Below are positions 1-15,080 of a stretch of DNA of 64,000 nucleotides, piece after piece. This stretch comes from a virus. How positions within the stretch are numbered: the first letter of the stretch is position 1; each line of letters begins with the position of its first letter. Under the pieces are notes generated by a model that was given only the letters and a program-made list of their open reading frames with translations, was not told where the DNA came from and ran no database searches. A program made the translations under genes and the position numbers. The DNA lies in the IMG/VR virus record IMGVR_UViG_3300045988_153285, positions 64,001 to 128,000 of that record; one strand, given 5' to 3'.

Positions 1-101
1 ATATAAATTAAAATAATACAATAAATATATTAAATTTACGAATATTATTGAATAAAATGGAAAGTATAATAAATGATGTTTAGTTTAAAGGAGATGTATT
101 T

Positions 102-626
102 ATGGGAACAATAGGTTTTTTTGGAATTAAGAAAGGTAATTTATATAAAAGGTGTTATACTTTCTATGATGCGTATCCATCATGCTTAGGAATTGAGATT
201 GTTAAATTTATAAATAATTCTACAATTCAAGAAATTAATAGCATATATGATAATATAGTGTTGGTAAATATGGATGACTTCCCTACAAGAAATCAATTTT
301 CTGATTGTGTATCGAATGGTTTTTATTCTAATCAAGAGTTTGGAGATGCTTGGGAATATATTATAAGGACTCCGAAAGATTTTGATCTAAGTATTTATAA
401 AAATTTTAGATATATGATAGATTTTGATAATGAAGAAAATAGAAGTAATTATAATTATTGGGACTATAACTATGTAATAAATTTAAATGAAAACACCTTA
501 GATATATACTACGATAATAAAAAAGATATTTATATTAGCTTTCCATTAGACGATGTTAATACACAAGATATGATAGAATTAGAAGATGATATAAATAGTG
601 ACGAATGTAATGAATATATTTATTAA
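102..626 (+). CDS. hypothetical protein, 174 aa
   Basis: Uninterrupted ORF with GGAG RBS (aaaggagatgtattt-ATG); no family motif recognised. Confidence 0.5.
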   Translation: MGTIGFFGIKKGNLYKRCYTFYDAYPSCLGIEIVKFINNSTIQEINSIYDNIVLVNMDDFPTRNQFSDCVSNGFYSNQEFGDAWEYIIRTPKDFDLSIYKNFRYMIDFDNEENRSNYNYWDYNYVINLNENTLDIYYDNKKDIYISFPLDDVNTQDMIELEDDINSDECNEYIY

Positions 627-741
627 TATCAAATCAGGTTGTATAAGTATTATTATATGAATCATATTTGAAAGAAGAGTAGATAAGATAAATTATTGAT
701 TATATCCTAAGTATGATGTAAAACTGCTTAAAAATAATTAA

Positions 742-790
742 ATATAAATTAATAAAATATGTTGACAAAAGAAAAGATTGGCATTATAAT
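742..790 (+). promoter_or_regulatory. sigma-A type promoter with conserved 17-bp upstream box (copy 1 of 8)
   Basis: ATATAAATTAATAAAAT-atg-TTGACA(762-767)-17 bp-TATAAT(785-790); heads the small-gene plus cas gene string. Confidence 0.75.
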
Positions 791-854
791 TAAATCATAC
801 CAAAGAGATACAAAAAAACAAAAGACTATAATATATATAAAAGGAGGTGAAAGC

Positions 855-1088
855 ATGAAAATTGAAACTTTGGAAATGGGGAAAAGATATGTTGTGACAA
901 AAGATTCTATGAGTGGATTTGCCAATATTGTAGGAATGGCTGAAGGAAATAAAATTGAATTTAAAAATGTTGATATTGACAATGTGGAGCTATATAAAGA
1001 AGATGATAAGATGTTTATCAAATTAGAAGTAAAAAGAGATAGTAAAGGCAACTTTGGATACATAACAACACCAAAGAATGAATTTTAA
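855..1088 (+). CDS. hypothetical small protein, 77 aa
   Basis: Track ORF 759-1088, but ATG 759 lies inside the promoter -35 region. Internal ATG 855 has AAGGAGGTGA 4 nt upstream. Confidence 0.6.
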   Translation: MKIETLEMGKRYVVTKDSMSGFANIVGMAEGNKIEFKNVDIDNVELYKEDDKMFIKLEVKRDSKGNFGYITTPKNEF

Positions 1089-1122
1089 TATAAAATAATA
1101 AATAAAAAGGAGACAAGAAGAT

Positions 1123-1299
1123 ATGTCATCAACAATAATAGCAAATTTTAAGGAAATTATAACGGATGAAAAAGGAATTCAAATAGAATGTGATAAAACA
1201 ATTCAAAGTGTAGGAGAAACATTAATATTGAAAGGAGAACGAGTAATTAAAGATTTTGAAATAAAAATTGAAAATGAAAATAAGGAGGTGAAAGTATGA
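1123..1299 (+). CDS. hypothetical small protein, 58 aa (paralog of 1696-1863)
   Basis: Below track threshold; RBS aaaaggaga upstream; stop overlaps next start (gtATGA); shares IITDE.G..I... and EIKI strings with 1696-1863. Confidence 0.5.
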   Translation: MSSTIIANFKEIITDEKGIQIECDKTIQSVGETLILKGERVIKDFEIKIENENKEVKV

Positions 1300-1679
1300 A
1301 TACATTACTAAAAGTTTATCAATGCAGCATATCAAAGAAGTTTGAATATAAACTGATCAATGATCTTGAAAATTATACGGTTAAATCAATACATAATAAT
1401 AGAGTCGCTATTGAAGATAATGTAGGAGATATCTTGTGGATAGAAGACAGGGGTTATGGCTTAGATATTGGAGACACCATAAGATTTAATAGATACGGTA
1501 TCAAAATATATAATGAAGATGGATATGTGGTAGATACAAAAGATTATAATTACAAGACTAGAGTTAAAGATATAAAAAATACTAAAGGTAAATATTTTGC
1601 AATTAAATCAATTTTAAGTTCATGTGACGAATTAAGAAAAACTATTGAAGAAGCTGAAATTGATTTTAATATAAATTAA
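1296..1679 (+). CDS. hypothetical protein, 127 aa
   Basis: ORF with AAGGAGGTG RBS, translationally coupled to 1123-1299. Confidence 0.6.
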   Translation: MNTLLKVYQCSISKKFEYKLINDLENYTVKSIHNNRVAIEDNVGDILWIEDRGYGLDIGDTIRFNRYGIKIYNEDGYVVDTKDYNYKTRVKDIKNTKGKYFAIKSILSSCDELRKTIEEAEIDFNIN

Positions 1680-1695
1680 TAAAGGAGATGAGAGT

Positions 1696-1863
1696 GTGAA
1701 GACAGTAACAGTAAAATTAAAAACAATAATTACAGATGAAGAAGGAAATGAAATAGATTTAGAAAACATAGATCAATACATAAGATAAACGTTGACATTA
1801 AAAATTGTACAAGTTAGCACAAGTAAAATTATTAAAGAAAAAGAAATAAAAATCAATAAATAA
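1696..1863 (+). pseudogene. paralog of 1123-1299 interrupted by an in-frame TAA (1786-1788)
   Basis: GTG start after AAAGGAG. The reading frame continues after the TAA to a stop at 1861-1863. The TAA aligns with a GAA codon in the intact paralog. Confidence 0.45.
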
Positions 1864-1878
1864 AAGGAGAGATAGAAA

Positions 1879-2391
1879 ATGAAATTAAATTTAATACCAG
1901 ATTTAATACTCATAAATGAAAGAGGAGAGAGGTTTAAAATTATAACTCAGCAAGCTGTAATTAGAATAGGTGATAGCGTTTTAATTAAAAATGACTTTGA
2001 CATTAGAGATGAATTAGAAAAGTTTTTTGAAGAATCAAAAGAATCAATTCTTGAATTAGAATACCATCCGTTAGATCAAAATCTAGAGCATACAGAAATA
2101 ACTACTAAGCGAATATATATTAATACATATGAAGTTAGAGAGTATTATAACACTGAAAAGGATAAAAATGATATGATATATATGTTTAGCGTTTCTGGTG
2201 AGAATACAAAGGAATTAATTGAAGAATATAGACACAGACAGATAGTTGAAAGTTTAAAAGAACAAAAATCAAAAGAAATAAAGTTTATTGATGAGGCAAC
2301 TCTGGAAAGATTGCTTAACGAAATGAGTGTAGGAACGCAAGAATTGATAGATTCAAATACAGAATTAATAAATAAATATTTAAGTATATAG
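1879..2391 (+). CDS. hypothetical acidic protein, 170 aa
   Basis: ORF with aaaaggagag RBS; last gene before cas5. Confidence 0.6.
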   Translation: MKLNLIPDLILINERGERFKIITQQAVIRIGDSVLIKNDFDIRDELEKFFEESKESILELEYHPLDQNLEHTEITTKRIYINTYEVREYYNTEKDKNDMIYMFSVSGENTKELIEEYRHRQIVESLKEQKSKEIKFIDEATLERLLNEMSVGTQELIDSNTELINKYLSI

Positions 2392-2465
2392 ATTTTAATA
2401 TAAATTAACAAAACATAGAGGATAAAGCCCGGAGTTGGGCTATTAAATAGATGTGAGGTGAAGAA

Positions 2466-3098
2466 ATGAGGTTTCATAAATTAATTATAACTGGCAATGA
2501 AGCACACTTTAAAATACCTATGAGAAGCAAATTTCAAAATACTTATAAAATACCTCCTATATCAACAGTTGTAGGAATGCTGCAAAATATATACGGTAAA
2601 GATATAAATGACTTTGAATTAGGATATTTCATAGAGTATGAGGGTGTTGGAAAAGAAATAATAAATATATATAAAGAAGTAAATAGTAGGCAGAAGACAT
2701 TGACTTGTTCAGATAGATTTACGAAAGATATTATATATGTTGAAAATTTATATAAAGTTAGGCTAGTTATCTACCACAATATAGAAAAAGAAATTGAATT
2801 CAAAGAACCATTGACATTAGGGAAAGCTAATTATCTTGCAAATGTAAAATTTGAGGAGATAGATCTAACTAATAAATTAGGTTTAGGATATAATCAATAT
2901 ACCCCTAAAGATATAGGATATGGTATGTTGACAAGAATTAATACAGTAACAAAATACAATGAATTAAAAGGTTATTATGAATATGAAACAGAACTTGTAA
3001 GAGAAAACTTGGAGGAGTTTGAGTTAGATAATAACTATGATGAAACAGAAGATATGAATATTTATGTGTGGAAATGGAGTGATGGAGTTGTTAGTTAA
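2466..3098 (+). CDS. cas5: CRISPR-associated Cas5 (type I)
   Basis: N-terminus MRFHKLIITGNEAHFKIPMRS..NTYKIPPISTVVGMLQNIYG matches the Cas5 hallmark (a.Fr.P...sY..PPpSt..G.l....G); GAGGTGA RBS; sits in a cas gene string. Confidence 0.75.
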   Translation: MRFHKLIITGNEAHFKIPMRSKFQNTYKIPPISTVVGMLQNIYGKDINDFELGYFIEYEGVGKEIINIYKEVNSRQKTLTCSDRFTKDIIYVENLYKVRLVIYHNIEKEIEFKEPLTLGKANYLANVKFEEIDLTNKLGLGYNQYTPKDIGYGMLTRINTVTKYNELKGYYEYETELVRENLEEFELDNNYDETEDMNIYVWKWSDGVVS

Positions 3099-3849
3099 AA
3101 AAATAATAATTATGAAAGGTGAGGGCAAGTTAGATTATAATTATCATTATGAATTAATGAAGAGATTATACGAAGCATTAACATTAACGGATGATAAGAA
3201 GGCATTGAATCTACACGATAAAGGAATAAGTGTAGATAAAAAGAGGTTTAAATTATTTAATTATACATTATGTTTCGATAAGGAAGTAAAATATTTAAAT
3301 GATGGTATAAGTTTTAATAAGGATAATAGTATTAGATTAATTCTATCAGGTGATACAGATATATTAAATCCAATAATTAAAGGACTTATAACTAAACAAG
3401 TAATAACCTTGAATGGTGTTGAATTAAAAATAACAAATATGGAAGACGATAAAAAATTTAACTTCAAAAATATAATGCTATATAAAGTAAGATCACCAAT
3501 AGTTGAAACAATATTTAATGGCGAAAGAATAGAGTATTTAAATCCTTGTCAAGAGAATTGGTATTCAGCTTTGGCAAATAACTTAAAGAGGAAATATAAA
3601 GCGGTGTACAATGAAGAATATGAAGGTGAGTTATTCTTTGACATAGAAGATATATTAAATGTTAAAAAGAAAATGATAAATAAAATCAAGAAAGGATTTT
3701 TAATAGGATATACAGATTTTGAAATATTTGTACAAGCTACTCCTAAGATGCAAAAAATAGCTTATAATTTAGGATTAGGGCAAAATAGTAGCTTAGGAAT
3801 GGGAGCTATATCTTATATAAAAGGGTGGAACAATGAACAGGACATATGA
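3082..3849 (+). CDS. cas6: CRISPR-associated endoribonuclease Cas6
   Basis: C-terminal glycine-rich loop GLGQNSSLGMGAIS (G.G.....G.G), RAMP-like N-terminal strand, RFKLFNYTLCF. Start chosen at ATG 3082 (track 3064), overlapping the cas5 end. Confidence 0.7.
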   Translation: MELLVKKIIIMKGEGKLDYNYHYELMKRLYEALTLTDDKKALNLHDKGISVDKKRFKLFNYTLCFDKEVKYLNDGISFNKDNSIRLILSGDTDILNPIIKGLITKQVITLNGVELKITNMEDDKKFNFKNIMLYKVRSPIVETIFNGERIEYLNPCQENWYSALANNLKRKYKAVYNEEYEGELFFDIEDILNVKKKMINKIKKGFLIGYTDFEIFVQATPKMQKIAYNLGLGQNSSLGMGAISYIKGWNNEQDI

Positions 3850-4960
3850 TGTATTCGTAGATAATGGGTTATTTGTGTTAGCATACTATCTAGATAAGGA
3901 AATAGAGAATATAACAGAACAAGATATATTTGATAGTATAGATATGATGTGTGAAAAGATAAATGAATTTACTGGTTGTGAAAAGTATTCAAATTTAAAA
4001 TCTATGATGTTTGCAAATTCAGCTTTGACACAACCTAATTCATCAAAGAAAGTAAATGACTTTTTAAATGACTTTTATAATTCTAAAGGCGAAGAAACTT
4101 GTTGTACTTGTGGAAATAAAACAGCAAATATAATTAATGGAGATTTAAATAGAAGTTATCTACCAAATAAAGTAGCACATACATTTTATAATTTCTCTAA
4201 CAATCTACAGGGTGTAAATGTATGTGGAATATGTTCTATACTTACAATGTTTAGTATATTAAATGCTAGAGTATATGGATTGGCTTACTTATATAATAGC
4301 GATAATGATGACTTTATGTATGACTATACATATGAACGTCAAGAAGAGAATGAAAGAGATATATTATCAGAAGCAAAGAAAAGTAAAGAAAAGATCAATA
4401 GTTTAAATACAGTTGAGCAGTTGATGAATAATACTAAGCTATATGATGGATATATACAAATATATAAATTCAACAATTCAGGACAAAACCAAGACATAGA
4501 AATACAAGATATTAATTCTGAAAGTGTTAAGCTATTATCCAATATAGTTAAATCAGGTATGTTAAATGAATTTAAACAATTTGGCTTAATGTACAATCTA
4601 ATCATAGGCAATTTAAGAAACGTATATCTTAGTAAAATAACAAAAGATGATGAAATGATATGCAGCAAAGAATTATTTGAGATGTTAAATAGAGAGGTAA
4701 ATATTTTGAGTAGTGAATTAAAGGAAGTTATAATAAAAATAGCCGATAGGTTAAAGAATGAAGATATAGTTAAGATAAGAAAAACATTAAAATTAATAAA
4801 AACATTTAAAGACTTTGAAGGGTTTATTGTTAACCTAGCTGAAGATTATAAAGATAAATATGATGACAATTTGTATACAGTTGACGAGTATATGCTATTA
4901 GATAATAAATTAAAATATAACCAAATTAAAAATTTAATGATAGTAAGCTTGATGCAATAA
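3833..4960 (+). CDS. cas8b: candidate Cas8b-like large subunit (short, 375 aa)
   Basis: Positioned between cas6 and cas7; Cys cluster CCTCGN...VCGICS; helical Lys/Glu-rich C-terminal half that could supply a Cas11-like small subunit. Assigned mainly by position. Confidence 0.5.
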   Translation: MNRTYDVFVDNGLFVLAYYLDKEIENITEQDIFDSIDMMCEKINEFTGCEKYSNLKSMMFANSALTQPNSSKKVNDFLNDFYNSKGEETCCTCGNKTANIINGDLNRSYLPNKVAHTFYNFSNNLQGVNVCGICSILTMFSILNARVYGLAYLYNSDNDDFMYDYTYERQEENERDILSEAKKSKEKINSLNTVEQLMNNTKLYDGYIQIYKFNNSGQNQDIEIQDINSESVKLLSNIVKSGMLNEFKQFGLMYNLIIGNLRNVYLSKITKDDEMICSKELFEMLNREVNILSSELKEVIIKIADRLKNEDIVKIRKTLKLIKTFKDFEGFIVNLAEDYKDKYDDNLYTVDEYMLLDNKLKYNQIKNLMIVSLMQ

Positions 4961-5000
4961 TAAATTAATAAAATTAGAGAGTAAAAGGAGAATGATTAAA

Positions 5001-6029
5001 ATGAAAAGAATGTTAAATATGAATTATGTTATTGAAGTTTTAGATGGAAGATTAAACGGAAGTGCAGTGGAAGTCGAAAGCAATAAGGATGGATTTAATA
5101 ATACAACTTTTACAAAGAAAATCGGTGGTAGAGCTAAGGTATCGGCAGTTTGTCAAAAGGCGAACATGAAGAATTATATGTGTGAAGTATTAAAAGAAAC
5201 TATTGGAGAAAAGACTAAAGAAGGTAAGCAAGTTTTAAGCACGCCTAACCCATATGCTAATTTATTTGATGATGTATTTGGATTTATGTTGGCGACAAAG
5301 ATTGAGTTGACTGAGGGAGAATATAAGGAATTACCAGAAGATGTGCAAAAAACATTTGAAAAGAAAGGTAAAAAATATACTAATAATGCAACTAAAAAGA
5401 GAACTTCTAACTTACAAATGAGTTCATTAATCAATGTGAGTAATAGAAGGGTTGAAACGGAATTTAATGTTTGTGCTACAAGTGGAGACAATATGCCTTA
5501 TAAAATTGAAACATATTCAGGAATTATGTCAGGAATAGCAAACTTAAATATAGGTAAGATAGGTGAATTTACTATATCAGATATTGCGTCAGAATATAGA
5601 GATTATACTGTTAAAGAAGCAGAAGTTCTAGGGGTTGAAAACCTATCAAGAGAAGATAAATTATCTAGAATAGAAAAGACATTAAATGCTTTAGAGTATA
5701 TGTCAATCAAAGGAAATCAGACAAACCACTTAACAGATACAAAACCTAAATTTATTATAATGGCTGATTATGGTTGGGGTAATAATGTATTCCAAGGAGT
5801 GATAAATAAAGATGGGTTAGATATAGAAATGCTAAAAGAATCAATAGATCAAAATGAAGAATATAGATTAAGTAATATTTATATAGGAGTTAATAAATTC
5901 TTTGATAAAAATAACAATTTAGATTTAGATACAATAAGAGAAGAATTAAGGGAATATGATTTCATAAAAGTTGATAATGTTCATAATACATTTAAGAATT
6001 ACATAAAAGAGTTAAGAGAGAATATTTAA
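5001..6029 (+). CDS. cas7: CRISPR-associated Cas7 (backbone subunit)
   Basis: About 340-aa RAMP-like ORF with KIGGRAKVSAVCQKANMKNYM resembling the Cas7/Cst2 r..iSg.a.K..iR motif. ATG 5001 has better RBS spacing than track start 4992. Confidence 0.6.
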   Translation: MKRMLNMNYVIEVLDGRLNGSAVEVESNKDGFNNTTFTKKIGGRAKVSAVCQKANMKNYMCEVLKETIGEKTKEGKQVLSTPNPYANLFDDVFGFMLATKIELTEGEYKELPEDVQKTFEKKGKKYTNNATKKRTSNLQMSSLINVSNRRVETEFNVCATSGDNMPYKIETYSGIMSGIANLNIGKIGEFTISDIASEYRDYTVKEAEVLGVENLSREDKLSRIEKTLNALEYMSIKGNQTNHLTDTKPKFIIMADYGWGNNVFQGVINKDGLDIEMLKESIDQNEEYRLSNIYIGVNKFFDKNNNLDLDTIREELREYDFIKVDNVHNTFKNYIKELRENI

Positions 6030-6127
6030 TTGTCGATGTAGTGGGATTTTAACACTAAGTTAATTAGACAGAAAATAAAAGACGGTCAGAGGTTGCAAAC
6101 TTAGTGTTAGAGCCAATATAGATACGG
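6030..6127 (+). promoter_or_regulatory. CRISPR leader with 11-12 bp inverted repeat and candidate promoter
   Basis: taacactaagt(6050-6060) / acttagtgtta(6099-6109) around a 38-nt loop; TTGCAA(6093-6098)-18 bp-TATAGA(6117-6122) would start transcription at repeat 1. Confidence 0.3.
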
Positions 6128-6751
6128 GTATTAATTATAATATGGTTATTTATAAACAACAACCTTTTAAAGTCATTATGAGTATTCCAATATGTATTAA
6201 TTATAATATGGTTATTTATAAATGAATGTGGACTCCTATATAAGATTATCTTCGATACGTATTAATTATAATATGGTTATTTATAAATATATATAAATTT
6301 TATGTGTTTCTTCAGTTTCTTCTGTATTAATTATAATATGGTTATTTATAAACTATAAATAGGTGTTTTTAACTCTAAATAGTGTCAAAGTATTAATTAT
6401 AATATGGTTATTTATAAATAGATCTACTGCCATTTTAATATTCATACTATTCACTTGTATTAATTATAATATGGTTATTTATAAACAGTGGTAATTCTAT
6501 TGTCAATATATCACCATAACTAGTTTTAATATTAATAATATATATTTATAAAGGTAGTAACAGTTTTAGGAACATTGACAGCTGGTGTGTTTAAATAGTA
6601 ATATAATTATTTATAAATGGTGTAGTGGTATACGACATCGAAAATAAAACTGCGTTTAAATATTAATATAGTTATTTATAAACTAAAAGGTCTTCCTAGA
6701 TACATTACATCTAAAGAAGTGTATTAATTATAATATAAATTATTTTATAAA
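6128..6751 (+). CRISPR. CRISPR array, 10 repeats / 9 spacers
   Basis: Repeat GTATTAATTATAATATGGTTATTTATAAA(C/T) is perfect at 6128, 6194, 6259, 6324, 6390 and 6457. Variant or degenerate copies lie at 6523, 6589, 6654 and 6721. Period is 65-67 bp and spacers are 35-37 nt, all unique. Confidence 0.95.
6575..6604 (+). promoter_or_regulatory. possible internal promoter inside the array trailer
   Basis: TTGACA(6575-6580, in spacer 7)-18 bp-TAATAT(6599-6604, in repeat 8); could be chance in AT-rich DNA. Confidence 0.2.
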
Positions 6752-6771
6752 ATTGAAAGGAGTAAAATAAA

Positions 6772-8718
6772 ATGTTAAAAGAGTATATAGCAAAAACAGA
6801 TAAAACATCATTAGAAGATCATAATAAAGAATTGACAAATATACTGAAACAAATAATTGATATATATGATATAGAAAATATAAAAGAATCATTGAATAGA
6901 TGTATTGAATATCATGACATAGGAAAATGTTCTGATTCAATGCAGAATAGATTAAAGGGAAAAGACGTTAATTTTATAAGACATGAATGGGTCGGTGCAA
7001 GTGTAGAAGATCTGACAGATGGTGAAAGATTGGCTATATTAACGCATCATAAAGATATTAGTAAGTCATTAGAATTAATTGATAATGATAAGTATATATC
7101 TGAATTAGAAGAAATTAAAAATAAATTGAATATAAAATTAAATAATATTGATGATTTTGTTAAGAAAGTAAACAAACCGAGGTGTAGTATTACAAAAGAT
7201 TTAGATAATATATTATTAAAGGGTTATTTAAATTATTGTGACCATTTATGCAGTGCAGGTAATATAACTATAGATAAAGGATTTAATTCTTTAGATAGGT
7301 TTAAGTTTAATAATTATAATTCTATTCAGAATAAGGCTATGAATACACGTGAAGACGTTTTAATTCAAGCTATGACAGGATTAGGTAAAACAGCGGCATC
7401 TTTATTGTGGAGTAATAATGTTCAGAATGAGGACAAGTCTAAAAGAATATATTACATATTGCCTTTTACAGCTAGTATAAATTCGTTATATAAAGATTTC
7501 TTAAATAGAAATATATCTACCACAATGCTACATAACAAAGCTGAATATTTTATGGACAAGCTGCATGATGAATATAATTATAAATTAATGAAGTATTCCA
7601 CTAAGCAACTAAACATTTGCACAATATTTCAATTAGCTAAGGCAATTTTTAGTTGTAAGAACTTTGAAATGATAATAGCTCAAATGAAGAACAGTATAAT
7701 AATGGTAGATGAAATACATTGCTTTGATTTAAAAACGTTGAGTTATATTTTAGAATTATTAAGATTTTTAAAATATAAATTAGGATGTAGAATCTGCATA
7801 ATGAGTGCCAGTATTCCAACTGTATTACAGAAATTAATAAAGGATAGACTAGATATAAACAAGGTTATATATGCTGATAAGCGTGATCTAAAAATAAGAC
7901 ATAGAATACATAGAGTAAATAAAACAATTTTGGATGACATAGAAAAAATAGAAAATGATCTAAGAGAAGGAAAGCAAGTTATAGTGTGTGTTAATAATGT
8001 GACTACTTCTCAGATTATTTATAAAATATTTAAAGATAAATATAAGTGCAAGTTGATACATGGTAGATTTAATACTAGAGATAGAGAAATTGCTGAACAA
8101 GGGCTAAAGGTAAATCAATTACTTGTAGGAACTCAAGCGATAGAAGTATCTTTAGATATTAGTTATGATACAATGTATACTGAAATAGCGCCATATGATG
8201 CTTTACTGCAGCGTTTCGGAAGAGTTAATAGACGTGGAGAAAAGGGAATTAGAGATATTTACATATATAATAACTATAATAAATGTATTTATGATGATGA
8301 ACTAATTAATAATACAGATTTAGTTATAGATGAAATAATACATAATGATAATAGAATAATACTTGAAGAAAAAGTTGAGCATTATTTGGATAAAGTTTAT
8401 ACATATATAGATATAATTAGCTACAATAAATATTCAAATTCTTTAGAAAAAGTAATAAATAATCTTAGAGTTGGAAACTATAATAAAAATAGCATAAAAG
8501 AGATGATTCAAGGTGATACAGTATCGGTAATTCCTGAGTGTCTATTGGAAGAATATCAAAAGCTGATAAATGATAGAGAATATTTAAAAGCTCAATCACT
8601 AAAGTTAAATATTAATTCTAATAGAATGAAATACAATAGTGACATGTTTTATATATGCGATGATTTGGTTGTATCGAAATATAAATATACATATGATTTA
8701 GGTATGGAGTTTGAATGA
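6772..8718 (+). CDS. cas3: Cas3 HD-nuclease/SF2 helicase
   Basis: N-terminal HD domain (CIEYHDIGK, RHEW, LTHHKD). Helicase motifs MTGLGKTAASL, VDEIHCFD, MSASIP, GTQAIEVSLDIS, QRFGRVNRRG. AAAGGAG RBS. Confidence 0.9.
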   Translation: MLKEYIAKTDKTSLEDHNKELTNILKQIIDIYDIENIKESLNRCIEYHDIGKCSDSMQNRLKGKDVNFIRHEWVGASVEDLTDGERLAILTHHKDISKSLELIDNDKYISELEEIKNKLNIKLNNIDDFVKKVNKPRCSITKDLDNILLKGYLNYCDHLCSAGNITIDKGFNSLDRFKFNNYNSIQNKAMNTREDVLIQAMTGLGKTAASLLWSNNVQNEDKSKRIYYILPFTASINSLYKDFLNRNISTTMLHNKAEYFMDKLHDEYNYKLMKYSTKQLNICTIFQLAKAIFSCKNFEMIIAQMKNSIIMVDEIHCFDLKTLSYILELLRFLKYKLGCRICIMSASIPTVLQKLIKDRLDINKVIYADKRDLKIRHRIHRVNKTILDDIEKIENDLREGKQVIVCVNNVTTSQIIYKIFKDKYKCKLIHGRFNTRDREIAEQGLKVNQLLVGTQAIEVSLDISYDTMYTEIAPYDALLQRFGRVNRRGEKGIRDIYIYNNYNKCIYDDELINNTDLVIDEIIHNDNRIILEEKVEHYLDKVYTYIDIISYNKYSNSLEKVINNLRVGNYNKNSIKEMIQGDTVSVIPECLLEEYQKLINDREYLKAQSLKLNINSNRMKYNSDMFYICDDLVVSKYKYTYDLGMEFE

Positions 8719-8738
8719 ACTTAAATTAAAAATTTAAA

Positions 8739-8787
8739 ATATAAATTAATAAAATAGATTGACAAATTTAAATAAGTAATATATAAT
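8739..8787 (+). promoter_or_regulatory. conserved-box promoter (copy 2)
   Basis: ATATAAATTAATAAAAT-aga-TTGACA(8759-8764)-17 bp-TATAAT(8782-8787), 21 bp after the cas3 stop. Confidence 0.75.
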
Positions 8788-9039
8788 AAATAATGTAAGA
8801 TTAAGGCATAAACCTTTAGCATAAGTATTGTCATAAATAATATGAAGGGCGGTGATTATCAAATTTAGGATAAATACATAAAACAAATCAAGATCAAACC
8901 AATTTAAATAAAAAATAAACCTATTCACACATTATTAACGGTTGACCTTAATTGGTCAATCTGAGGATATTGAAAAGTATCTTGAGATTAACTAATTAAG
9001 AAATGACTTATAAATTAAAATTACAAAGGAGTTGGGAAA

Positions 9040-9213
9040 ATGAATGCATATGAATTAATGAAAGAATTCTATGATCTAGATAATGAGATTTTAGAATTGG
9101 TAAACAAGAAAAATAAGAAAGATGTAGCCTGGATGGACAAGGCGATCGATTCAAAATTAAGCAGACAATTAGAAATTAAGCACACTTTAGAAAGAATAAA
9201 TGTAGTGTTATAG
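9040..9213 (+). CDS. hypothetical small protein, 57 aa
   Basis: Below track threshold; RBS aaaggagttggg; frame verified codon by codon. Confidence 0.5.
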   Translation: MNAYELMKEFYDLDNEILELVNKKNKKDVAWMDKAIDSKLSRQLEIKHTLERINVVL

Positions 9214-9223
9214 GAGGGAAATT

Positions 9224-9610
9224 ATGAATCATAAATACATAGAAGAAATTATGGATATAGAAGAATCGCCTTATGGTTGGTCAAAAAATACGGGTAGAGA
9301 TGAAATGTGGGAAGATCAAAGAAGAATATATGGGTTTGATGAAAGAGAAACTTGGAGTTTAGATGCAACATTTATCTATTGGCTATATGAACGATTGAGA
9401 ATGTTTAATGAAGTAAATTGTATAAATACTGATTTTCATACATTCGATATAAACGGTAAGAAACTTACTCAACAAGAATGCATAGATACTATGATAGCTA
9501 AATGCAAAGATTATATAGCATATCGAGGAATAGATGATAATTATACTTACAACTTAAAAAATGAAATTTTAGATATATGGAAAGAATGCATTCATGCTAT
9601 GTGGTGGTAG
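9224..9610 (+). CDS. hypothetical protein, 128 aa
   Basis: ORF with AGGAGGG RBS. Confidence 0.6.
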   Translation: MNHKYIEEIMDIEESPYGWSKNTGRDEMWEDQRRIYGFDERETWSLDATFIYWLYERLRMFNEVNCINTDFHTFDINGKKLTQQECIDTMIAKCKDYIAYRGIDDNYTYNLKNEILDIWKECIHAMWW

Positions 9611-9647
9611 CAAATAAAATGCGGATTTTAAAAGGAGTTGAATAAAA

Positions 9648-9992
9648 ATGGATAGAGAAATAATATTGAAAGCTTTAAGAATTCATGAAGATGGAATAAT
9701 GCAATTTACTCTAGGAGAGGTAACTGTTGACGAAGATGAGACAATTAAATGTAGTGATATTTATAGTTCAGAATGGGAAAATCATAGTGAAGAAATAGCA
9801 GTTTCGATAGAAAGTATATTATGTAGTAATATGCCTTTAAAACCAGATATGTTGGTAGGTATTATAGTAAATGAATGGTTTAACTATGTTGGTAGTGATG
9901 TTGAAGATTTAAACTATTATGGTTTACTAGGTGTAGCTATAGAAATTATAGATTATATAGAAAGATGCCAACACAAGGATGATAATGAATAA
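9648..9992 (+). CDS. hypothetical acidic protein, 114 aa
   Basis: ORF with AAAGGAG RBS. Confidence 0.6.
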   Translation: MDREIILKALRIHEDGIMQFTLGEVTVDEDETIKCSDIYSSEWENHSEEIAVSIESILCSNMPLKPDMLVGIIVNEWFNYVGSDVEDLNYYGLLGVAIEIIDYIERCQHKDDNE

Positions 9993-10024
9993 TTTGAAAT
10001 TATTGCGAAAGAGAGGATTTTAAA

Positions 10025-10219
10025 ATGGTAGTAAGAAATGATAAAGATAAATTAGTTTTTCAAAGTTTAGATTTTGAAATAATGTTAGGTGATATGTTTA
10101 TGAAGTGTAGGAATGTAAGAGAAGCACAGTGGTTAGCATGTCAATTACAGGGTGCAGTTGAAGTTATTTGTGAAGAGAAAATAGATGAAATTGAAAGTGA
10201 CGAAGAATTATGTGATTAA
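10025..10219 (+). CDS. hypothetical acidic protein, 64 aa
   Basis: ORF with GAGAGG RBS. Confidence 0.5.
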   Translation: MVVRNDKDKLVFQSLDFEIMLGDMFMKCRNVREAQWLACQLQGAVEVICEEKIDEIESDEELCD

Positions 10220-10261
10220 TTCGCAATTTAAAAATAGGACTTTGAAATTATTACGAGGTAA

Positions 10262-10363
10262 ATGGATATGGTTATTTTAAAAATTATAATAGGGTTATGG
10301 TTAATTTTTGTAGTAATACCAACATTATTTAAGATACTAGAAGATTACAAACATACAAAATAA
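10262..10363 (+). CDS. small membrane peptide, 33 aa
   Basis: MDMVILKIIIGLWLIFVVIPTLF...; one hydrophobic helix; weak RBS (acgaggtaa). Confidence 0.35.
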   Translation: MDMVILKIIIGLWLIFVVIPTLFKILEDYKHTK

Positions 10364-10420
10364 AGGAGTAGCAAGTAATTCATTAAAAAAATTAACGAAT
10401 AACTGAAAGGAATAATATAA

Positions 10421-10588
10421 ATGATGGTTTATCAAATAATGGAATATAGAAATTGTGACGAACATTATAGTTGGGGAATGTATTCATCTGAAGAGAATGC
10501 AATACTTTACTTAAAACAAATGGGATGGGATAAATGTGAGGATTTTGAGATTGTATCATATGAGTTGGATGAAAAACTAAAAAAGTAA
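10421..10588 (+). CDS. hypothetical small protein, 55 aa
   Basis: Same-strand ORF filling the gap; the track shows only an antisense ORF here (10392-10619). Confidence 0.45.
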   Translation: MMVYQIMEYRNCDEHYSWGMYSSEENAILYLKQMGWDKCEDFEIVSYELDEKLKK

Positions 10589-10756
10589 TTCGCAATTCAA
10601 AAAGTGAAGAAAAATACATAGATAATTATGAAGAGTATTCAAATATTGGCGATGACGGATGTCTAGAGTACGAAAGTAAATTAGGGTATTAATTAAACAA
10701 TAATTAAAAATAAAGTGAATTGATAAAATTACAAATTTATTAAAGTAGGTGATAAT

Positions 10757-10966
10757 ATGAAAAAGAAATTAACAGAAGAAATAGAAAATCTGGAAAGAAA
10801 AATGATGACTGCTGGAACAATATTAGCTGTAATATCATCAATAGGATTGTATGCTTGGGCGTTTGGTGTAAAGATGGTGCATCCAGCAATATATGTTATG
10901 AGTATGATAATGGGTATAGGTTTCTTTTGCACAGCCTGTGTAGATAAAATTAGGAGGTTGAAATAG
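10757..10966 (+). CDS. small membrane protein, 69 aa
   Basis: Two predicted TM helices; AGGTGA RBS. Confidence 0.55.
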   Translation: MKKKLTEEIENLERKMMTAGTILAVISSIGLYAWAFGVKMVHPAIYVMSMIMGIGFFCTACVDKIRRLK

Positions 10967-10967
10967 T

Positions 10968-11405
10968 ATGAAGCAAATAGTTGTAAATGGTGGAGAAACT
11001 CATGGAGGTTTATTAACTCCAAAGTGGGTAGTTGAATATTACAGAAGAAAAGGAATTGAGTTATTTGTTTATATTCCTGAATTAATAGAAGATGATTATA
11101 TATATGAATTGAAAGATCCAAACGAGTTAGATGATAACACTTGTATATATTGTCCGTTATATTTACTTGATAATTTTGGTGATATTATTGAAGAAATTAC
11201 CGATGAAATAGCTCAGAAAGTAGTTAATGAATACGATATGTTTAAAGATAGAGAAGATAAGACATTAATAGATATTGTAAAAGAAATAAATAATGAAAAC
11301 TTAGTTAAAATCATAGAGATACCTGATGACGTTGAATATGACGTTGCAGAATCAGATTGTGGATTTAGGGAATGGGTAGAAGAAAAACATAGAGTGTGGT
11401 ATTAG
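10968..11405 (+). CDS. hypothetical acidic protein, 145 aa
   Basis: ORF with AGGAGG RBS. Confidence 0.6.
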   Translation: MKQIVVNGGETHGGLLTPKWVVEYYRRKGIELFVYIPELIEDDYIYELKDPNELDDNTCIYCPLYLLDNFGDIIEEITDEIAQKVVNEYDMFKDREDKTLIDIVKEINNENLVKIIEIPDDVEYDVAESDCGFREWVEEKHRVWY

Positions 11406-11416
11406 GAGAAATAAAT

Positions 11417-11542
11417 ATGAGTAGATTAGATTTTGAATTAAAGGTTATTGATATATTAGATGATGCATGTAGTAATTTATCAAGTCAAGAATTTGACAAG
11501 CTGTTAGAAAGAATTAAAGAAACTATTGAAGATTATGAATAA
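11417..11542 (+). CDS. hypothetical small protein, 41 aa
   Basis: AGGAGA RBS, compact spacing. Confidence 0.4.
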   Translation: MSRLDFELKVIDILDDACSNLSSQEFDKLLERIKETIEDYE

Positions 11543-11560
11543 GTATATGGAGGCAAGAAT

Positions 11561-11812
11561 ATGAAAAATGATAATAAAGTTATACAAACAAATATAACAA
11601 ACAAGGATATAGTTATTAGAATACCAAAGAAATTTATACTTGAAGACTTTGAAAACAGTGTTGAAGACTATAAAATAAAAGGAAATAAGAAAACAGAATT
11701 TATAAATGAATTCACTAAGTTATTTAGAGAACATATAGAAGATAACGATATTGTAGTTGATATTTATGATGAATTATGTGATACAGATTTAGTTAAAGAA
11801 ATAGAATATTAA
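11561..11812 (+). CDS. hypothetical protein, 83 aa
   Basis: ORF with GGAGG RBS. Confidence 0.55.
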   Translation: MKNDNKVIQTNITNKDIVIRIPKKFILEDFENSVEDYKIKGNKKTEFINEFTKLFREHIEDNDIVVDIYDELCDTDLVKEIEY

Positions 11813-11851
11813 AATTAATAAAAACAATATTTTAAAGAAAGGAATAGTTAT

Positions 11852-11989
11852 ATGTTTTGCTTAGATGACAATAAATATAAAAATGAGTGCGGTAAGTGTT
11901 GTAGTAAATGTATGGATAGACAAACTCATTTATGTAAGAAAAGCTGTTTTTATTTGACTTTTAGATGTGATGAATGTATGCATCAATAA
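11852..11989 (+). CDS. Cys-rich small protein, 45 aa
   Basis: Eleven Cys in 45 aa, including CGKCCSKC and CDEC. Confidence 0.4.
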   Translation: MFCLDDNKYKNECGKCCSKCMDRQTHLCKKSCFYLTFRCDECMHQ

Positions 11990-12011
11990 AATAATAGGAG
12001 GTTAATTAGAT

Positions 12012-12209
12012 ATGAACACAGAATTTTATACAATTATGATTGGTGATAAGTTCTTAAATTCGAATTTATTTAGAAAAGAAAATGAATTGATAACAGAGGC
12101 AGTTAAATTTACATATGAAGAAGATTGTAGAGAATATTTTAATGATCTTAGAAAAGACAAGCCATTTAAAATAGTTAAGGTTAAATGCGAATTAGAGGAA
12201 GTAGAATAG
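12012..12209 (+). CDS. hypothetical protein, 65 aa
   Basis: ORF with AGGAGG RBS. Confidence 0.55.
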   Translation: MNTEFYTIMIGDKFLNSNLFRKENELITEAVKFTYEEDCREYFNDLRKDKPFKIVKVKCELEEVE

Positions 12210-12223
12210 AGGAGGAATATACA

Positions 12224-12385
12224 ATGAAAGCAAAAATAGCATTACATGGTTGTGATGATATTACACGTTTTGAGGTTGAAGTTGATGATAACAAGTTAGA
12301 ATTTATTAAAGAATTGTCTGAAAAGTCTATAGAAGAATCAGAATATGCGTGTATGCCAGTTTTAAAATATGAAATATGTGAATAA
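12224..12385 (+). CDS. hypothetical protein, 53 aa
   Basis: Track ORF 12185-12385; ATG 12224 follows GAGGAGG RBS. Confidence 0.5.
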   Translation: MKAKIALHGCDDITRFEVEVDDNKLEFIKELSEKSIEESEYACMPVLKYEICE

Positions 12386-12431
12386 AATTTACGATTTATA
12401 TAAATTAATATAATAAAAGGAGTGTTTATTT

Positions 12432-12632
12432 ATGAAAAACAAATTAACAATAGCTGTAACAATTTTACTATTAAACATTGCAGTCGGAGGATGGTCAGTA
12501 AATGAAATACTATCCTGGTTCGGCAAGAATATACCATTTGCATTTGATATAATTTTAGGATTAATAACAGGATCTATTTCAATACCAGTAGCAATTGTAG
12601 GATGGATATTAAAAGTTTGTGGAGTATTTTAA
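12432..12632 (+). CDS. small membrane protein, 66 aa
   Basis: Two hydrophobic helices; AAAGGAG RBS. Confidence 0.55.
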   Translation: MKNKLTIAVTILLLNIAVGGWSVNEILSWFGKNIPFAFDIILGLITGSISIPVAIVGWILKVCGVF

Positions 12633-12650
12633 AAAGGAGTTAATACATAT

Positions 12651-12824
12651 ATGAACGTAATAGCATGGACAGTGTTAACGTTAAGCTGGTTAAGTGCAGC
12701 AATATGTTTAACAGGTGTAATTATAGAAGGTAATACTAAAGATAAAGTTAAGAATTTAGTACGAGCTAGTATAAACATAATGACAATGTATTTAATGTTA
12801 TATATGTTAGGATTTATAATTTAA
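12651..12824 (+). CDS. small membrane protein, 57 aa
   Basis: Below track threshold; AAAGGAG RBS; hydrophobic. Confidence 0.45.
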   Translation: MNVIAWTVLTLSWLSAAICLTGVIIEGNTKDKVKNLVRASINIMTMYLMLYMLGFII

Positions 12825-12854
12825 GTAAAAATATAATTTTACAAAAAAAACATA

Positions 12855-12903
12855 ATATAAATTAACAAAATTGGTTGACAAGTTCTTTTATATGATATAT
12901 AAT
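12855..12903 (+). promoter_or_regulatory. conserved-box promoter (copy 3)
   Basis: ATATAAATTAACAAAAT-tgg-TTGACA(12875-12880)-17 bp-TATAAT(12898-12903). Confidence 0.75.
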
Positions 12904-13015
12904 AAATTATGTAAGGAGGACAAGTTAATAAATAATAAAAATTAAAATACAGAGATAAGAATAAAACCTGTGAGAAGATGGTTAAATAAATTGAAATAAA
13001 AAGGAGAAATGAATT

Positions 13016-13945
13016 ATGGAAAGAACAGCAAACAAATTATCAATCGTAGGAGTTTTAGTTAAGAAAGGTTTAGAAATCAGAAATGTAGGAGAAGACAAAG
13101 AATGCATATCTGGAAGTTTAGTTTTAAGAACTGATGATGGTAGTGAACACGAAGTTAATTATTTTGCAAATAAATATAAGAAGGATGAGAATGGAAATTT
13201 CACAAGTGAAATTAGTAAAATGTATACTGGTTATGAAACAATTATTTCAGATTACATATCTTTAGAAATGGATAAAGATAATGCAGATGTTATTAAAACA
13301 GGAAGCACTGAGTTAACAGCAAATGATTTTAAGAATAAAGAAGGAAATTTAATATCAACTAATAAGATTAGAGCAAATTTTGCAAATAGATTGTCAGATC
13401 AAGAAAGAGAAATAACGCCAAAAGCGGCAACATTTGAAGTATCAGGAGTGATAACAAAAATTCAACCTGAAATGATTAAAGATGAAGCAACTGGAAATGG
13501 AATAGTAATGTTAGATGTAATTGGTTATAATGGTACTATAATTCCTGTCAAATTAACAATTCCATCAAACTTAGTAGATGGATTCGGAAAAGCAGGTTTC
13601 TATGAAGGTGGTACAGGGAAGTTTACAGGTAACATTATAAATACAAAAACAATAGAAACAGTTGTAGAAAAACAAGCGTTTGGAGAAGATAAGGTTTATG
13701 AAACAACAAAAACTGTAAAAAGATATGAAGTTAGAGGTGGATCTCCATTAGGTGGATTCGAATCATTAAAAATAACTCAAGAAGAATATTCAGCGGCACA
13801 ATCTAAGAGAAGATTAAAATTAGATGAAATTAAAAATGGTACAAATAATTCAAATACAAACAATGTAAATAATATGAACAATCCTTTTGGACAAGCAGCT
13901 CAACCACAAGTTAATCCATTTAGCAGTAACCCTTTTGCTAGATAG
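13016..13945 (+). CDS. putative ssDNA-binding / recombination-associated protein, 309 aa
   Basis: First gene of the replication operon, next to an AAA ATPase; low-complexity Asn/Pro/Phe C-terminal tail (NPFGQ..NPFSSNPFAR). Function inferred from position only. Confidence 0.25.
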   Translation: MERTANKLSIVGVLVKKGLEIRNVGEDKECISGSLVLRTDDGSEHEVNYFANKYKKDENGNFTSEISKMYTGYETIISDYISLEMDKDNADVIKTGSTELTANDFKNKEGNLISTNKIRANFANRLSDQEREITPKAATFEVSGVITKIQPEMIKDEATGNGIVMLDVIGYNGTIIPVKLTIPSNLVDGFGKAGFYEGGTGKFTGNIINTKTIETVVEKQAFGEDKVYETTKTVKRYEVRGGSPLGGFESLKITQEEYSAAQSKRRLKLDEIKNGTNNSNTNNVNNMNNPFGQAAQPQVNPFSSNPFAR

Positions 13946-13966
13946 CAATACATATAAATTAACAAA

Positions 13967-13993
13967 ATAAGGGTGTTTAATAAACACCCTTAT
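13967..13993 (+). terminator. 12-bp stem hairpin (terminator-like, no clear T-run)
   Basis: ataagggtgttt-aat-aaacacccttat, immediately after a box-only copy ATATAAATTAACAAAAT. Confidence 0.4.
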
Positions 13994-14037
13994 GAAATAT
14001 AAATTAAATTTATTAGATTGAAGGAGAGATTATTAAT

Positions 14038-15027
14038 ATGATGGGATTAAATATTTTTGATATTCAAGAAAACAAGGTAACTACAAATTTAAATCAATAT
14101 GGAATTATATTAATGAGTGAAACTGGTGATGGTAAAACAACAACAATGAATAATATATTAACTCAATTAGCAGATGGAGATAAGAAACCATTATTCATAA
14201 TGTTAGAAGATCGATATCAACATATTCCAGGAATCAAAGCAATAAGAGTTAGAAATATGGGAGAATTAAATACAGTAAAATCACAATTAATGAACCCTAA
14301 AGCTAAAGAGTTATTTAGTTGTATAGTATTTGATACAGTTGATAAATTAGATTCAATGATTGAAAAATATGTTGCTGATTCAAAGGAAGTGCAAATAACT
14401 GGTGATTTAGGGTTTGGAAAAGGTAATAAATACATAAAGAGTACAATTCAATTCATTACAGAGTTAAGAAATAATGGATGGACACCACATTATATAGCAC
14501 AAGCTGTAAAAAATGAAGATATAACAACGAAGAGTGTAACTTATACAGTTAAGGTAAATAAAGAGATTTGGGGGCTTATTTCACATGATGCATATTTAAT
14601 AGGATTTTTAAGTGTAAATGCTAAAGGTGATAGATTAATTAATTTTAAGAAAACTAAAGAATATCCTCAATTAAAAGATTCTATAGGAATGCCAACGAAT
14701 GTTAAACCTCAAGAATTTAAAAAAGTTTTCAAAGAGGGAGTTACTAAAATGGCAGGTGGAATGCTTACAGATGAAGATACAATAAATGTAGTAGTTAATG
14801 ATACTAGAGACTTTGAAGCTATAAAACAAAAGGGAATGGATTTAGGATCAGAACTTGCAGCTAATGGTTATTTAAATGATGCCATGTTTGTATTAAGTCA
14901 AACAATAGGAACTGATGAAAATGGAAATGCTAAAATGTTCGATTCATTAATACCTGCTCAAATAGATTTAGCTGAAGTAGTGGTTCAAAAATTAGAAGAA
15001 TTAAAGAGAACAAAAGGATTAGCTTAA
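14038..15027 (+). CDS. phage AAA/RecA-fold ATPase (Sak4/AAA_24-like)
   Basis: Walker A SETGDGKTT near the N-terminus, Walker B-like IVFDTVD; typical phage replication-recombination neighbourhood. Confidence 0.5.
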   Translation: MMGLNIFDIQENKVTTNLNQYGIILMSETGDGKTTTMNNILTQLADGDKKPLFIMLEDRYQHIPGIKAIRVRNMGELNTVKSQLMNPKAKELFSCIVFDTVDKLDSMIEKYVADSKEVQITGDLGFGKGNKYIKSTIQFITELRNNGWTPHYIAQAVKNEDITTKSVTYTVKVNKEIWGLISHDAYLIGFLSVNAKGDRLINFKKTKEYPQLKDSIGMPTNVKPQEFKKVFKEGVTKMAGGMLTDEDTINVVVNDTRDFEAIKQKGMDLGSELAANGYLNDAMFVLSQTIGTDENGNAKMFDSLIPAQIDLAEVVVQKLEELKRTKGLA

Positions 15028-15030
15028 ACG

Positions 15031-15060: not shown

Positions 15061-15080
15061 AAAGAGATGGGTGGTGTAAT

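Follow-up and report, generated by a model that had tools for sequence, protein, structure and literature searches.

A probable interference-only type I-B CRISPR-Cas module, with its array between cas7 and cas3, on a large uncultured phage or phage-plasmid

Introduction

[quoted passage not shown] Skarin et al. noted cas3, cas5, and cas6 together with arrays on the botulinum neurotoxin (BoNT) prophage and on p2 (2011; PMC3098183), and Le Gratiet et al. drew such loci with Cas5, Cas6, Cas8b, Cas7, and Cas3 genes and arrays (2021; PMC8473940). According to the latter study, most of the loci in Clostridium novyi sensu lato (s.l.) have lost cas4, cas1, and cas2, and some have lost cas3, p1_16868 being one phage with the complete set; the type I-B loci of mobile elements are not related to those of the chromosome, and phage-phage competition and complementation in trans were proposed for them (PMC8473940). 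Here we analyze a locus of this kind at positions 2466-8718 of a 64,000-nucleotide viral sequence (IMG/VR record IMGVR_UViG_3300045988_153285, positions 64,001 to 128,000; the whole stretch is hereafter called the window), which comprises five co-directional cas genes with an array between cas7 and cas3, and which probably represents a functional interference-only type I-B module of a large phage, directed against competing mobile elements.

In comparison with the C. novyi s.l. elements (c-st = p1_Stockholm, p2_BKT015925, and pCN2/pCLG2), the proteins of the window exhibit identities of 46-49% for Cas5, 42-43% for Cas6, 34-42% for Cas8, and 44-60% for Cas7, and Cas3 of p2_BKT015925 is 50% identical. 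Like the window module, these loci have the order cas5-cas6-cas8-cas7-array(-cas3), are located on phages or plasmids, and are devoid of cas4, cas1, and cas2; their repeat family is also similar to that of the window (GTATTAAT...GTTATAAA). They differ in that the window copy is intact including cas3, whereas c-st and pCN2 lack cas3 and c-st and p2 are broken by insertion sequences. Furthermore, the published loci adjoin a plasmid replication initiator, which the window module does not, and the window phage is unrelated to c-st in its replication genes. As judged from homology and architecture, the window module belongs to the C. novyi s.l. mobile-element lineage. The original prediction for this locus, which was made by a model from the sequence letters, had implied novelty; this is not supported, because the same module with the same gene order was already described on the BoNT phages and plasmids of C. 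botulinum group III (PMC8473940).

The CD2982-CD2975 and 'partial' cas operons of C. difficile (Boudry et al., 2015; PMC4556805) comprise the same five effector families as the window. Canonical clostridial type I-B systems also have, as in the window, AT-rich unstructured repeats of 29-30 nt running from GT.. to ..TAAA(N), spacers of ~36-38 nt, and a CCW-like protospacer-adjacent motif (PAM) on the 5' side. Their genes are arranged in the order cas6-cas8b-cas7-cas5-cas3-cas4-cas1-cas2 with arrays outside the operon, whereas the window has cas5 and cas6 first and the array inside the operon. Vibrio phage ICP1 is said to carry a type I-F CRISPR-Cas system, as described by Seed et al. in 2013. 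It resembles the window module in being of type I, in being encoded by a phage along with an array of its own, and in its use, which is probable for the window, against a second mobile element in the host, but it differs in the subtype (I-F), in the presence of cas1 and cas2-3, in being self-adapting, and in its target, a satellite of the host (PLE); the two are unrelated in sequence, the likeness being one of purpose. CRISPR-Cas systems without adaptation modules have reportedly been found in huge phages as well, by Al-Shayeb et al. in 2020. These systems resemble the window module in the large size of the phage, in the lack of cas1 and cas2, in spacers against competing phages, and, as far as our reading of the window goes, in the proposed dependence on host adaptation machinery; they are mostly I-C/I-F variants or types III, IV, and V/CasPhi in phages of >200 kb, whereas the window has a Cas3-containing type I-B system in a phage lineage of ~150 kb. 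In the type I-B Tn7-like CRISPR-associated transposons (CASTs), which lack cas3 and are linked to tnsABCD/tniQ, an I-B-derived Cascade is likewise carried on a mobile element without adaptation genes. Pfam matches to Tns and TniQ are absent from the window, in which the only transposase-like gene, an IS605-type TnpB, is 54 kb away; since cas3 is present and no Tns genes were found, the window module is not a CAST. Most CRISPR-encoding phages are without adaptation genes (PMC12607003).

Type I-B cas genes

The five co-directional open reading frames (ORFs) in 2466-8718, all on the + strand, have exactly the coordinates given in the original prediction. The first, cas5b (2466-3098; 210 aa), matches TIGR01895 (E-value, 9.6e-18), TIGR02593 (above the cutoff), and the PADLOC Cas5b model (2.5e-18). 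The endoribonuclease gene cas6b (3064-3849), whose product has 261 aa when counted from the first ATG, the start called in relatives being 18 nt downstream, matches TIGR01877 (1.2e-18, above the cutoff) and PADLOC Cas6b (4.9e-39). It is followed by the gene for a compact Cas8b large subunit (3833-4960; 375 aa), which matches the PADLOC Cas8b model PDLC02050 (2.7e-11), and by cas7b of the Cst2/DevR type (4992-6029; 345 aa), which matches TIGR02585 'type I-B Cas7/Cst2/DevR' (2.1e-20; 73.0 bits, as compared with a cutoff of 72.75) and PADLOC Cas7b (4.5e-21). On the other side of the array, cas3b (6772-8718; 648 aa), with an HD nuclease and a superfamily 2 helicase, matches TIGR01587 (9.4e-63), the HD-domain model TIGR01596 (2e-11, above the cutoff), and PADLOC Cas3b (8.6e-137 over residues 3-646). 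All five predicted proteins match type I-B profiles, so that the assignment of Cas5, Cas6, Cas8, the Cas7-like protein, and Cas3 to this type, made earlier from the letters, was borne out for 5/5.

Residues 21-373 of the putative Cas8b align to positions 99-485 of the 496 in PDLC02050; because the alignment starts at position 99, the protein appears to be without roughly the first hundred profile positions. It is ~120 profile positions shorter than the matching PADLOC model, in agreement with the earlier remark that the large subunit (375 aa) is much smaller than typical Cas8b. The model for the CxxC region of Cas8b (PDLC01645) gave an E-value of 0.004 on the 375-aa ORF, no Pfam or NCBIfam family matched it above threshold (the sole Pfam signal was Cas_CXXC_CXXC with E=0.19), and alignment with relatives revealed four invariant cysteines (C90, C93, C131, and C134). 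An AlphaFold2 model of the protein (predicted local distance difference test score, 87.8) found nothing at E <= 0.001 in a Foldseek search of the PDB, in which a chain of a type I-C Cascade came top (E=0.4), and a profile search of the PDB sequences gave no match. A search within cas8 for an internal, in-frame Cas11 start with a Shine-Dalgarno sequence found no convincing candidate. The relatives of Cas8 in a collection of 5.8 billion proteins (n = 74) are 207-417 aa long (372-417 aa for the full-length ones); Pfam domains are absent from all 74, and JGI uses the name 'Cst1' for one. Since cas7 and cas8 are labelled 'hypothetical' in current annotation of this lineage, such systems are overlooked or broken up by automated typing.

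The ratios of nonsynonymous to synonymous substitution rates (dN/dS) in comparison with the related locus L005 were 0.18 for cas5, 0.22 for cas6, 0.15 for cas8, 0.14 for cas7, and 0.09 for cas3, and ranged over 0.20-0.36 across the five genes in comparison with the more distant locus L012. The five genes in the window are all intact, and all evolve under purifying selection.

The CRISPR array, its leader, and transcription

An array of 10 repeats and 9 spacers is located at 6128-6751 in the same orientation (+) as the cas genes, and thus between cas7 and cas3, where the original prediction had placed it; such an array is far beyond chance. Six identical 29-nt repeats (GTATTAATTATAATATGGTTATTTATAAA) start at 6128, 6194, 6259, 6324, 6390, and 6457, and are followed on the cas3-proximal side by four degenerate ones at 6523, 6589, 6654, and 6721. 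The nine spacers are 36-38 nt long, or 35-37 nt, the range originally given, if a variable 30th base is assigned to the repeat. This base, which is C, T, or G and never A after repeats 1-9, may be part of the repeat or derived from the PAM. The window repeats were predicted by folding to be unstructured as RNA, and a comparison of the array and leader with Rfam gave no CRISPR-DR or other family. At the distal end, the terminal degenerate repeat runs directly into the ribosome-binding site (RBS) of cas3 (6721-6771, +; ..TTTTATAAAATTGAAAGGAGTAAAATAAA-ATG). The same repeat-to-RBS junction is found in the loci L005, L010, L011, L012, L015, L017, and L018, and the final repeat of L022 is likewise found directly before cas3.

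Alignments of relatives revealed a conserved leader at 6030-6127 (+), ~100 nt of which are kept in the window, L005, L010, L011, and L023, together with a conserved leader-repeat junction (CCAATAT..TACGG). In the leader, 6047-6061 pairs with 6098-6112 to form a 15-bp long-range stem around a 36-nt variable loop; one compensatory pair (A-U/U-A) among 4 sequences gives thin evidence for it. The loop has the length of a spacer and differs in sequence between relatives, and the 5' arm of the stem resembles the repeat of C. difficile-type arrays (..TTTTAACACTAAGTTA..). The stem could represent a relic of a repeat-spacer unit, or else a hairpin with a regulatory role.

A regulatory mini-array of the CreR/CreA kind was considered for the window and rejected, the last spacer being not conserved among related phages. 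Seed searches for CreA-like targets gave a single 14-nt match, in L017, which is probably due to chance. This match begins at the 5' end of the spacer in the L017 mini-array (7838-7939), is located at ~11875 (-) with the flank TATAA, inside a small ORF right after the main array, and recalls the partial targets of the CreA/CreR type; none was found for the equivalent spacers of L015 and L018 or for the window spacers S7-S9.

The closest perfect promoter of the sigma-70 type (TTGACA-N17-TATAAT) upstream of cas5 is at 762-790 (+; 12/12 matches). The + strand has six perfect sites in all (762, 8759, 12875, 26415, 40932, and 42431), and with at most one mismatch allowed, 10 sites were observed as compared with 2.5 expected. 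The cas block lies between the 762 and 8759 promoters, 1.7 kb and four small ORFs separating the former from cas5, and terminator prediction over 1-13000 gave none. In the near-identical metagenomic contigs L008, L009, and L024, the segment corresponding to 1103-2391 of the window is absent, which places the 762 promoter and one ORF of 109 aa immediately in front of cas5. The 762 promoter is probably the start of the transcription unit that holds the cas genes. The earlier view of a cas locus behind the same conserved early promoter as the replication genes can be retained to this extent, with the correction that the promoter is not adjacent to cas5. In the otherwise AT-rich DNA 30 nt upstream of cas5, a GC-rich hairpin (AGCCCGGAGTTGGGCT) is found at 2416-2436; it is kept in L008 and L024, has no T-run and so was not called a terminator, and could be a processing or attenuation site.

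Relatives and conserved gene order

Contigs of the Cas8 family and profile scans of genomes, IMG/VR, and metagenomes yielded ~17 distinct loci, in which the identity of Cas8 to that of the window ranges from 99% down to 30%. A local blastp survey found the order cas5-cas6-cas8-cas7-...-cas3 in every one of them, where cas3 is present. The non-canonical order cas5-cas6-cas8-cas7-[array]-cas3, to which the original prediction had drawn attention, is thus confirmed but is not unique to the window, being kept in the ~17 loci. The 145-160 kb relatives comprise ena:ERZ28629643 scaffold_42, ERZ27273557 contig_1524, ERZ27273568 contig_957, and IMGVR_UViG_3300024999_000040. Among the carriers are several contigs of 145-160 kb with SPbeta-like genes (YorF, YorH, and a sigma factor), one contig of 148.7 kb from IMG/VR, and elements integrated in C. 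difficile; further loci were found in Terrisporobacter, Hathewaya limosa, Alkaliphilus, and Clostridium metagenome-assembled genomes (MAGs), of which those in Terrisporobacter, Hathewaya, and Alkaliphilus have chromosomal-looking flanks. A protein search with Cas7 found only Clostridium phage c-st among 50,697 phage records (CST023; 46% identity) and, among plasmids, five entries that belong to C. botulinum group III and C. novyi. With megablast, near-identical DNA for the locus was absent both from the same 50,697 phage records and from 72,556 plasmids.

In the big-phage lineage and in L016 (48 repeats), L020 (28), and L022 (13), the array is flanked by cas7 and cas3. In L015, L017, and L018, a two-repeat mini-array occupies this position and the main array, with up to 69 repeats in L018, comes after cas3; in the C. 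difficile elements, the array is found only after cas3. Several copies on known elements are decayed or incomplete: c-st has cas5, cas6, a cas8 cut by an IS200/IS605 element, cas7, and a 3-repeat array, but no cas3; p2BKT015925 has cas5, cas6, a broken cas8, a split cas7, an array with an IS256 element within it, and then cas3; and pCN2 keeps cas5-cas6-cas8-cas7 with what remains of an array, but has no cas3. The array between cas7 and cas3, with its last repeat joined to the RBS of cas3, is ancestral in the clade.

In L002, L003, L014, and L025, which are from C. difficile and a metagenome contig, the five-gene module is situated in a small integrated element (~1-20000). In the C. difficile element, a tyrosine integrase is followed by Fic, a cI-like repressor, DnaB, HNH, the cas genes, and the array, and then by a Dcm methylase, an AspBHI-like restriction enzyme, and MutH. 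Its appearance is more that of a satellite or defence island than of a complete prophage. A further array, with the same repeat, is present in L002 at ~20290-20620.

Spacer targets and spacer turnover

A protospacer was found for only one of the nine spacers, S2 (6223-6258, +). It is located in IMGVR_UViG_3300045988_159656 (L021, 8335-8370), where 32/36 bases are identical, the first 27 bases being contiguous and the four mismatches all lying in the PAM-distal 9 nt. It is within a 58-aa zinc-ribbon ORF, not within an array, and its 5' flank (...TGTCC) reads TCC, or CCT if the first T of the spacer (the variable 30th base) is assigned to the PAM. The PAM of the C. difficile type I-B system has been defined experimentally as CCW (PMC4556805), and the flank of the S2 match agrees with it. 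The target contig is 37.5 kb long (28.6% GC in the 9.2-kb stretch examined) and has a 1038-aa protein with the fold family of RNA-dependent RNA polymerase (RdRP), PF05183 (1.2e-8), and a weak actin-like ALP_N match. We take PF05183 to be the family of the SPbeta YonO RNA polymerase; because a YonO-like polymerase of the RdRP fold is encoded, the contig is regarded as SPbeta-like. It has no detectable similarity to the window and its relatives. The target of S2 is hence taken to be another large SPbeta-like phage or phage-plasmid of similar base composition.

Six spacers were scanned in IMG/VR as exact 26-mers, and one of them also in JGI metagenomes; those of S1, S4, S5, S6, and S7 are absent from IMG/VR, and that of S1 is absent from the JGI metagenomes. 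A blastn search of all nine spacers gave only a chance-level match of 28/31 to a crAss-like phage among phages (E=0.4) and nothing in the plasmid collection. Neither did 32 spacers from relatives match any phage; no self-target was found in the window at up to 8 mismatches, nor any cross-targeting among 22 loci. The BoNT phages with the homologous locus do hold spacers against other BoNT phages (PMC8473940). The idea put forward in the original prediction, that the module interferes with competing elements, gains some support from the S2 protospacer with its CC(T) flank and from the purifying selection.

As to adaptation genes, all window ORFs of at least 55 aa were translated and scanned with Pfam as concatenated polyproteins (E <= 0.001); the scans of the window cover 64 kb of a genome that is probably ~150 kb. 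No ORF in the 64 kb matched the Cas1, Cas2, or Cas4 families, just as the first reading of the letters had suggested. Cas1, Cas2, and Cas4 are also absent among the ORFs checked beside the module in L014-L018, L020, and L022, and they have no entry in the precomputed Pfam tables of genes for L002-L005 and L010-L013.

The spacer contents nevertheless change rapidly. The cas genes of L023 are 96-97% identical in DNA to those of the window (synonymous divergence, dS, of Cas8, 0.05), yet its array of ~13 repeats has zero spacers in common with the window; the array of L005 is a deletion derivative of that of L011, with spacers 1, 2, and 8-10 in common. On a short timescale, arrays in this lineage shed spacers and are also replaced in full. 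Because the turnover between near-identical phages is complete, spacers must be renewed somehow; since the module has no integrase of its own and its spacers change fast nonetheless, new ones would have to come from Cas1-Cas2-Cas4 acting in trans or from array exchange. Apart from this, a spacer of L018 from Hathewaya limosa (15082-15118) and one of L020 from an Alkaliphilus MAG (8712-8747) are identical at 24/27 positions, which suggests independent acquisition from one conserved target gene.

Proposed function and alternatives

Altogether, we consider it probable, at roughly 0.7, that the locus is a functional interference-only type I-B module of a large phage, acting against competing mobile elements. 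The five cas genes and the array would be transcribed one way, probably as one unit from the 762 promoter. By the established type I pathway, Cas6 would cut the precursor of the CRISPR RNAs (crRNAs) within the repeats, and Cas5, Cas7, and the compact Cas8b would assemble on the crRNAs to form Cascade, which would recognize, on incoming DNA, protospacers with an adjacent CC(W)-like PAM; the HD-helicase Cas3 would then degrade the PAM-flanked target DNA. The targets would be mobile elements competing for the same host, among them at least one SPbeta-like phage or phage-plasmid, and spacers may be supplied in trans by Cas1-Cas2-Cas4 of the host, a source that the original prediction had also envisaged, or of a co-resident element, or by array recombination. 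Since the array precedes cas3, we infer that the expression of cas3 would hinge on transcription running through the array and on the processing of the latter by Cas6. It may be speculated that, if the two are co-transcribed, a Cas6 cut in the terminal repeat would create the 5' end of the cas3 mRNA, and, as a further speculation, that this cleavage could couple or limit Cas3 production relative to Cascade.

Several points weigh against an interference-only module that is at work in this way. The identity of the putative Cas8b draws on one profile match (2.7e-11) and the gene position; targets were found for 1/9 spacers, and present interference against the S2 contig is uncertain because of the four mismatches. 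The window repeat was not found in 185,579 species-representative genomes, so that there is no candidate donor of adaptation proteins. The negative result for adaptation genes covers 64 kb of the ~150-kb genome, roughly 90 kb being outside, and the homologous locus on phage p1_16868 was reported with cas4-cas1-cas2 (PMC8473940). The last two points bear on the alternative that the system is complete, its adaptation genes lying elsewhere in the ~150-kb genome and acquiring spacers by themselves; in addition to the precedent of p1_16868, the complete turnover between near-identical phages speaks of ongoing renewal, and the leader-repeat junction is conserved as would be expected of an integration site. 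We regard this alternative as unlikely. Throughout the ~17 loci, cas1, cas2, and cas4 were not found within up to 10 kb of the module, or within the flank present on the contig, nor are they in the 55 kb downstream or the 2.4 kb upstream of the module in the window. Adaptation genes directly follow cas3 in canonical type I-B systems, and there are none at that place in the window.

The module might instead be aimed at the host (at defence islands, or at satellites as in Vibrio phage ICP1) or serve as a gene regulator, rather than act on rival phages. This is compatible with the 8/9 spacers without a known target in the IMG/VR, JGI, phage, and plasmid searches, with the target region of S2, which is almost without PHROG matches and could belong to a non-phage element, and with the relatives without cas3 (c-st and pCN2), which could only bind DNA, as discussed in PMC8473940. 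It is nevertheless improbable: the intact Cas3 is under the strongest purifying selection of the five (dN/dS 0.09), which speaks for DNA destruction and not for regulation, the one target found sits in an IMG/VR viral contig with a YonO-like polymerase, and no spacer matches the window itself, even at up to 8 mismatches. Even less credible, and in our estimation very improbable, is the reading that the locus is what remains of a type I-B system that the phage captured from a host, now non-functional and in decay. Decay is certainly visible in c-st, p2BKT015925, and L011 (a cas8 cut by IS200/IS605, a split cas7, IS256 in the array, and a fragmented or absent cas3), and 4/10 window repeats are degenerate; the window has, however, five full-length ORFs with dN/dS of 0.09-0.22, six identical repeats, a conserved leader, and spacer turnover.

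A further proposal, which we put forward tentatively and hold to be rather doubtful, is that the clade with the compact 375-aa Cas8b forms a type I-B variant of its own, carried for the most part by mobile elements. In this variant, the array would be integral to the effector operon, the last degenerate repeat would serve as the 5' untranslated region of cas3, Cas6 cleavage or Cascade loading there would set the Cas3 dosage, and adaptation would rely on proteins supplied in trans. If this were true, the Cas3 nuclease would be made only while crRNA processing runs, and whole arrays would still be replaced at ~5% synonymous divergence.

What may be new here is the breadth and strict conservation of the lineage with the compact Cas8b and the array inside the operon, its occurrence in uncultured ~150 kb phages and in C. 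difficile integrated elements, the terminal repeat fused to cas3, and the full replacement of spacers among phages that are nearly identical. The 'partial type I-B' loci of the botulinum-toxin phages are part of a wider lineage of fixed architecture that spans uncultured ~150 kb phages, plasmids, and C. difficile integrated elements, and the window offers an example of an intact, apparently selected Cascade-Cas3 system on a phage of AT-rich Clostridia. With its five genes and array in ~6.3 kb, the module is a compact self-contained effector and a candidate for genome-editing tests in clostridia, and the whole-array replacement at 96-97% identity of the cas DNA, without adaptation genes in cis, makes a tractable case of array renewal in phages.

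The carrier and its other genes

The carrier of the module is a phage or phage-plasmid. The Pfam scan of the AT-rich window (27.7% GC) detected AAA_24, DnaB, a RecJ-like DHH protein, PolB, RecD2, HNH, PcfJ, YopX, NrdD/NrdG, dUTPase, an ATP-dependent ligase, FolD, a tyrosine recombinase, holin and amidase, and the IS605-type TnpB, to which PHROGs adds primase, a tail fibre, and a 1062-aa minor tail protein (3e-66). A chromosomal island in place of a phage is ruled out by the replication, tail, and lysis genes, and the phage surroundings recognized earlier are borne out by the phage replication module, tail genes, and lysis cassette. The carrier is probably a large uncultured phage of AT-rich Clostridia with SPbeta-like genes and a genome of ~150 kb. 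The closest cultured relatives of its PolB, at 49% identity, are from siphophages of Staphylococcus, Paenibacillus, and Bacillus, and the PolB of c-st is not among the best matches listed. The cas module sits amid small ORFs of unknown function upstream of the replication genes.

The tyrosine recombinase gene (48850-49857, -) adjoins a gene with a weak match to a RepL-type plasmid replication protein (50108-50980, -; Pfam E=5e-4). The pair (48850-50980, -) is located between the early and late gene blocks and fits a temperate or plasmid-prophage lifestyle, such as that of c-st.

The nrdD gene for the anaerobic ribonucleotide reductase (36209-38882) is broken up into three ORFs (36209-37369, 37600-38094, and 38400-38882). 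No Rfam match was found in the second gap (38095-38399), and the first holds a group I intron at 37344-37594 (Rfam RF00028; 81.6 bits, gathering threshold 50; E=7e-21), which was missed by the whole-window Rfam scan at the gathering threshold and found by a targeted scan only.

Beside the tail genes, the IS605-type TnpB (62761-63924, -) comprises OrfB_IS605 and a Cas12f1-like TNB domain. Because it has thousands of metagenome relatives at ~85-91% identity, the element is highly active in an uncultured host community. TnpB genes adjoin or interrupt the homologous CRISPR loci of c-st and L012, and the association of TnpB with the homologous loci was remarked on by Le Gratiet et al. (PMC8473940).

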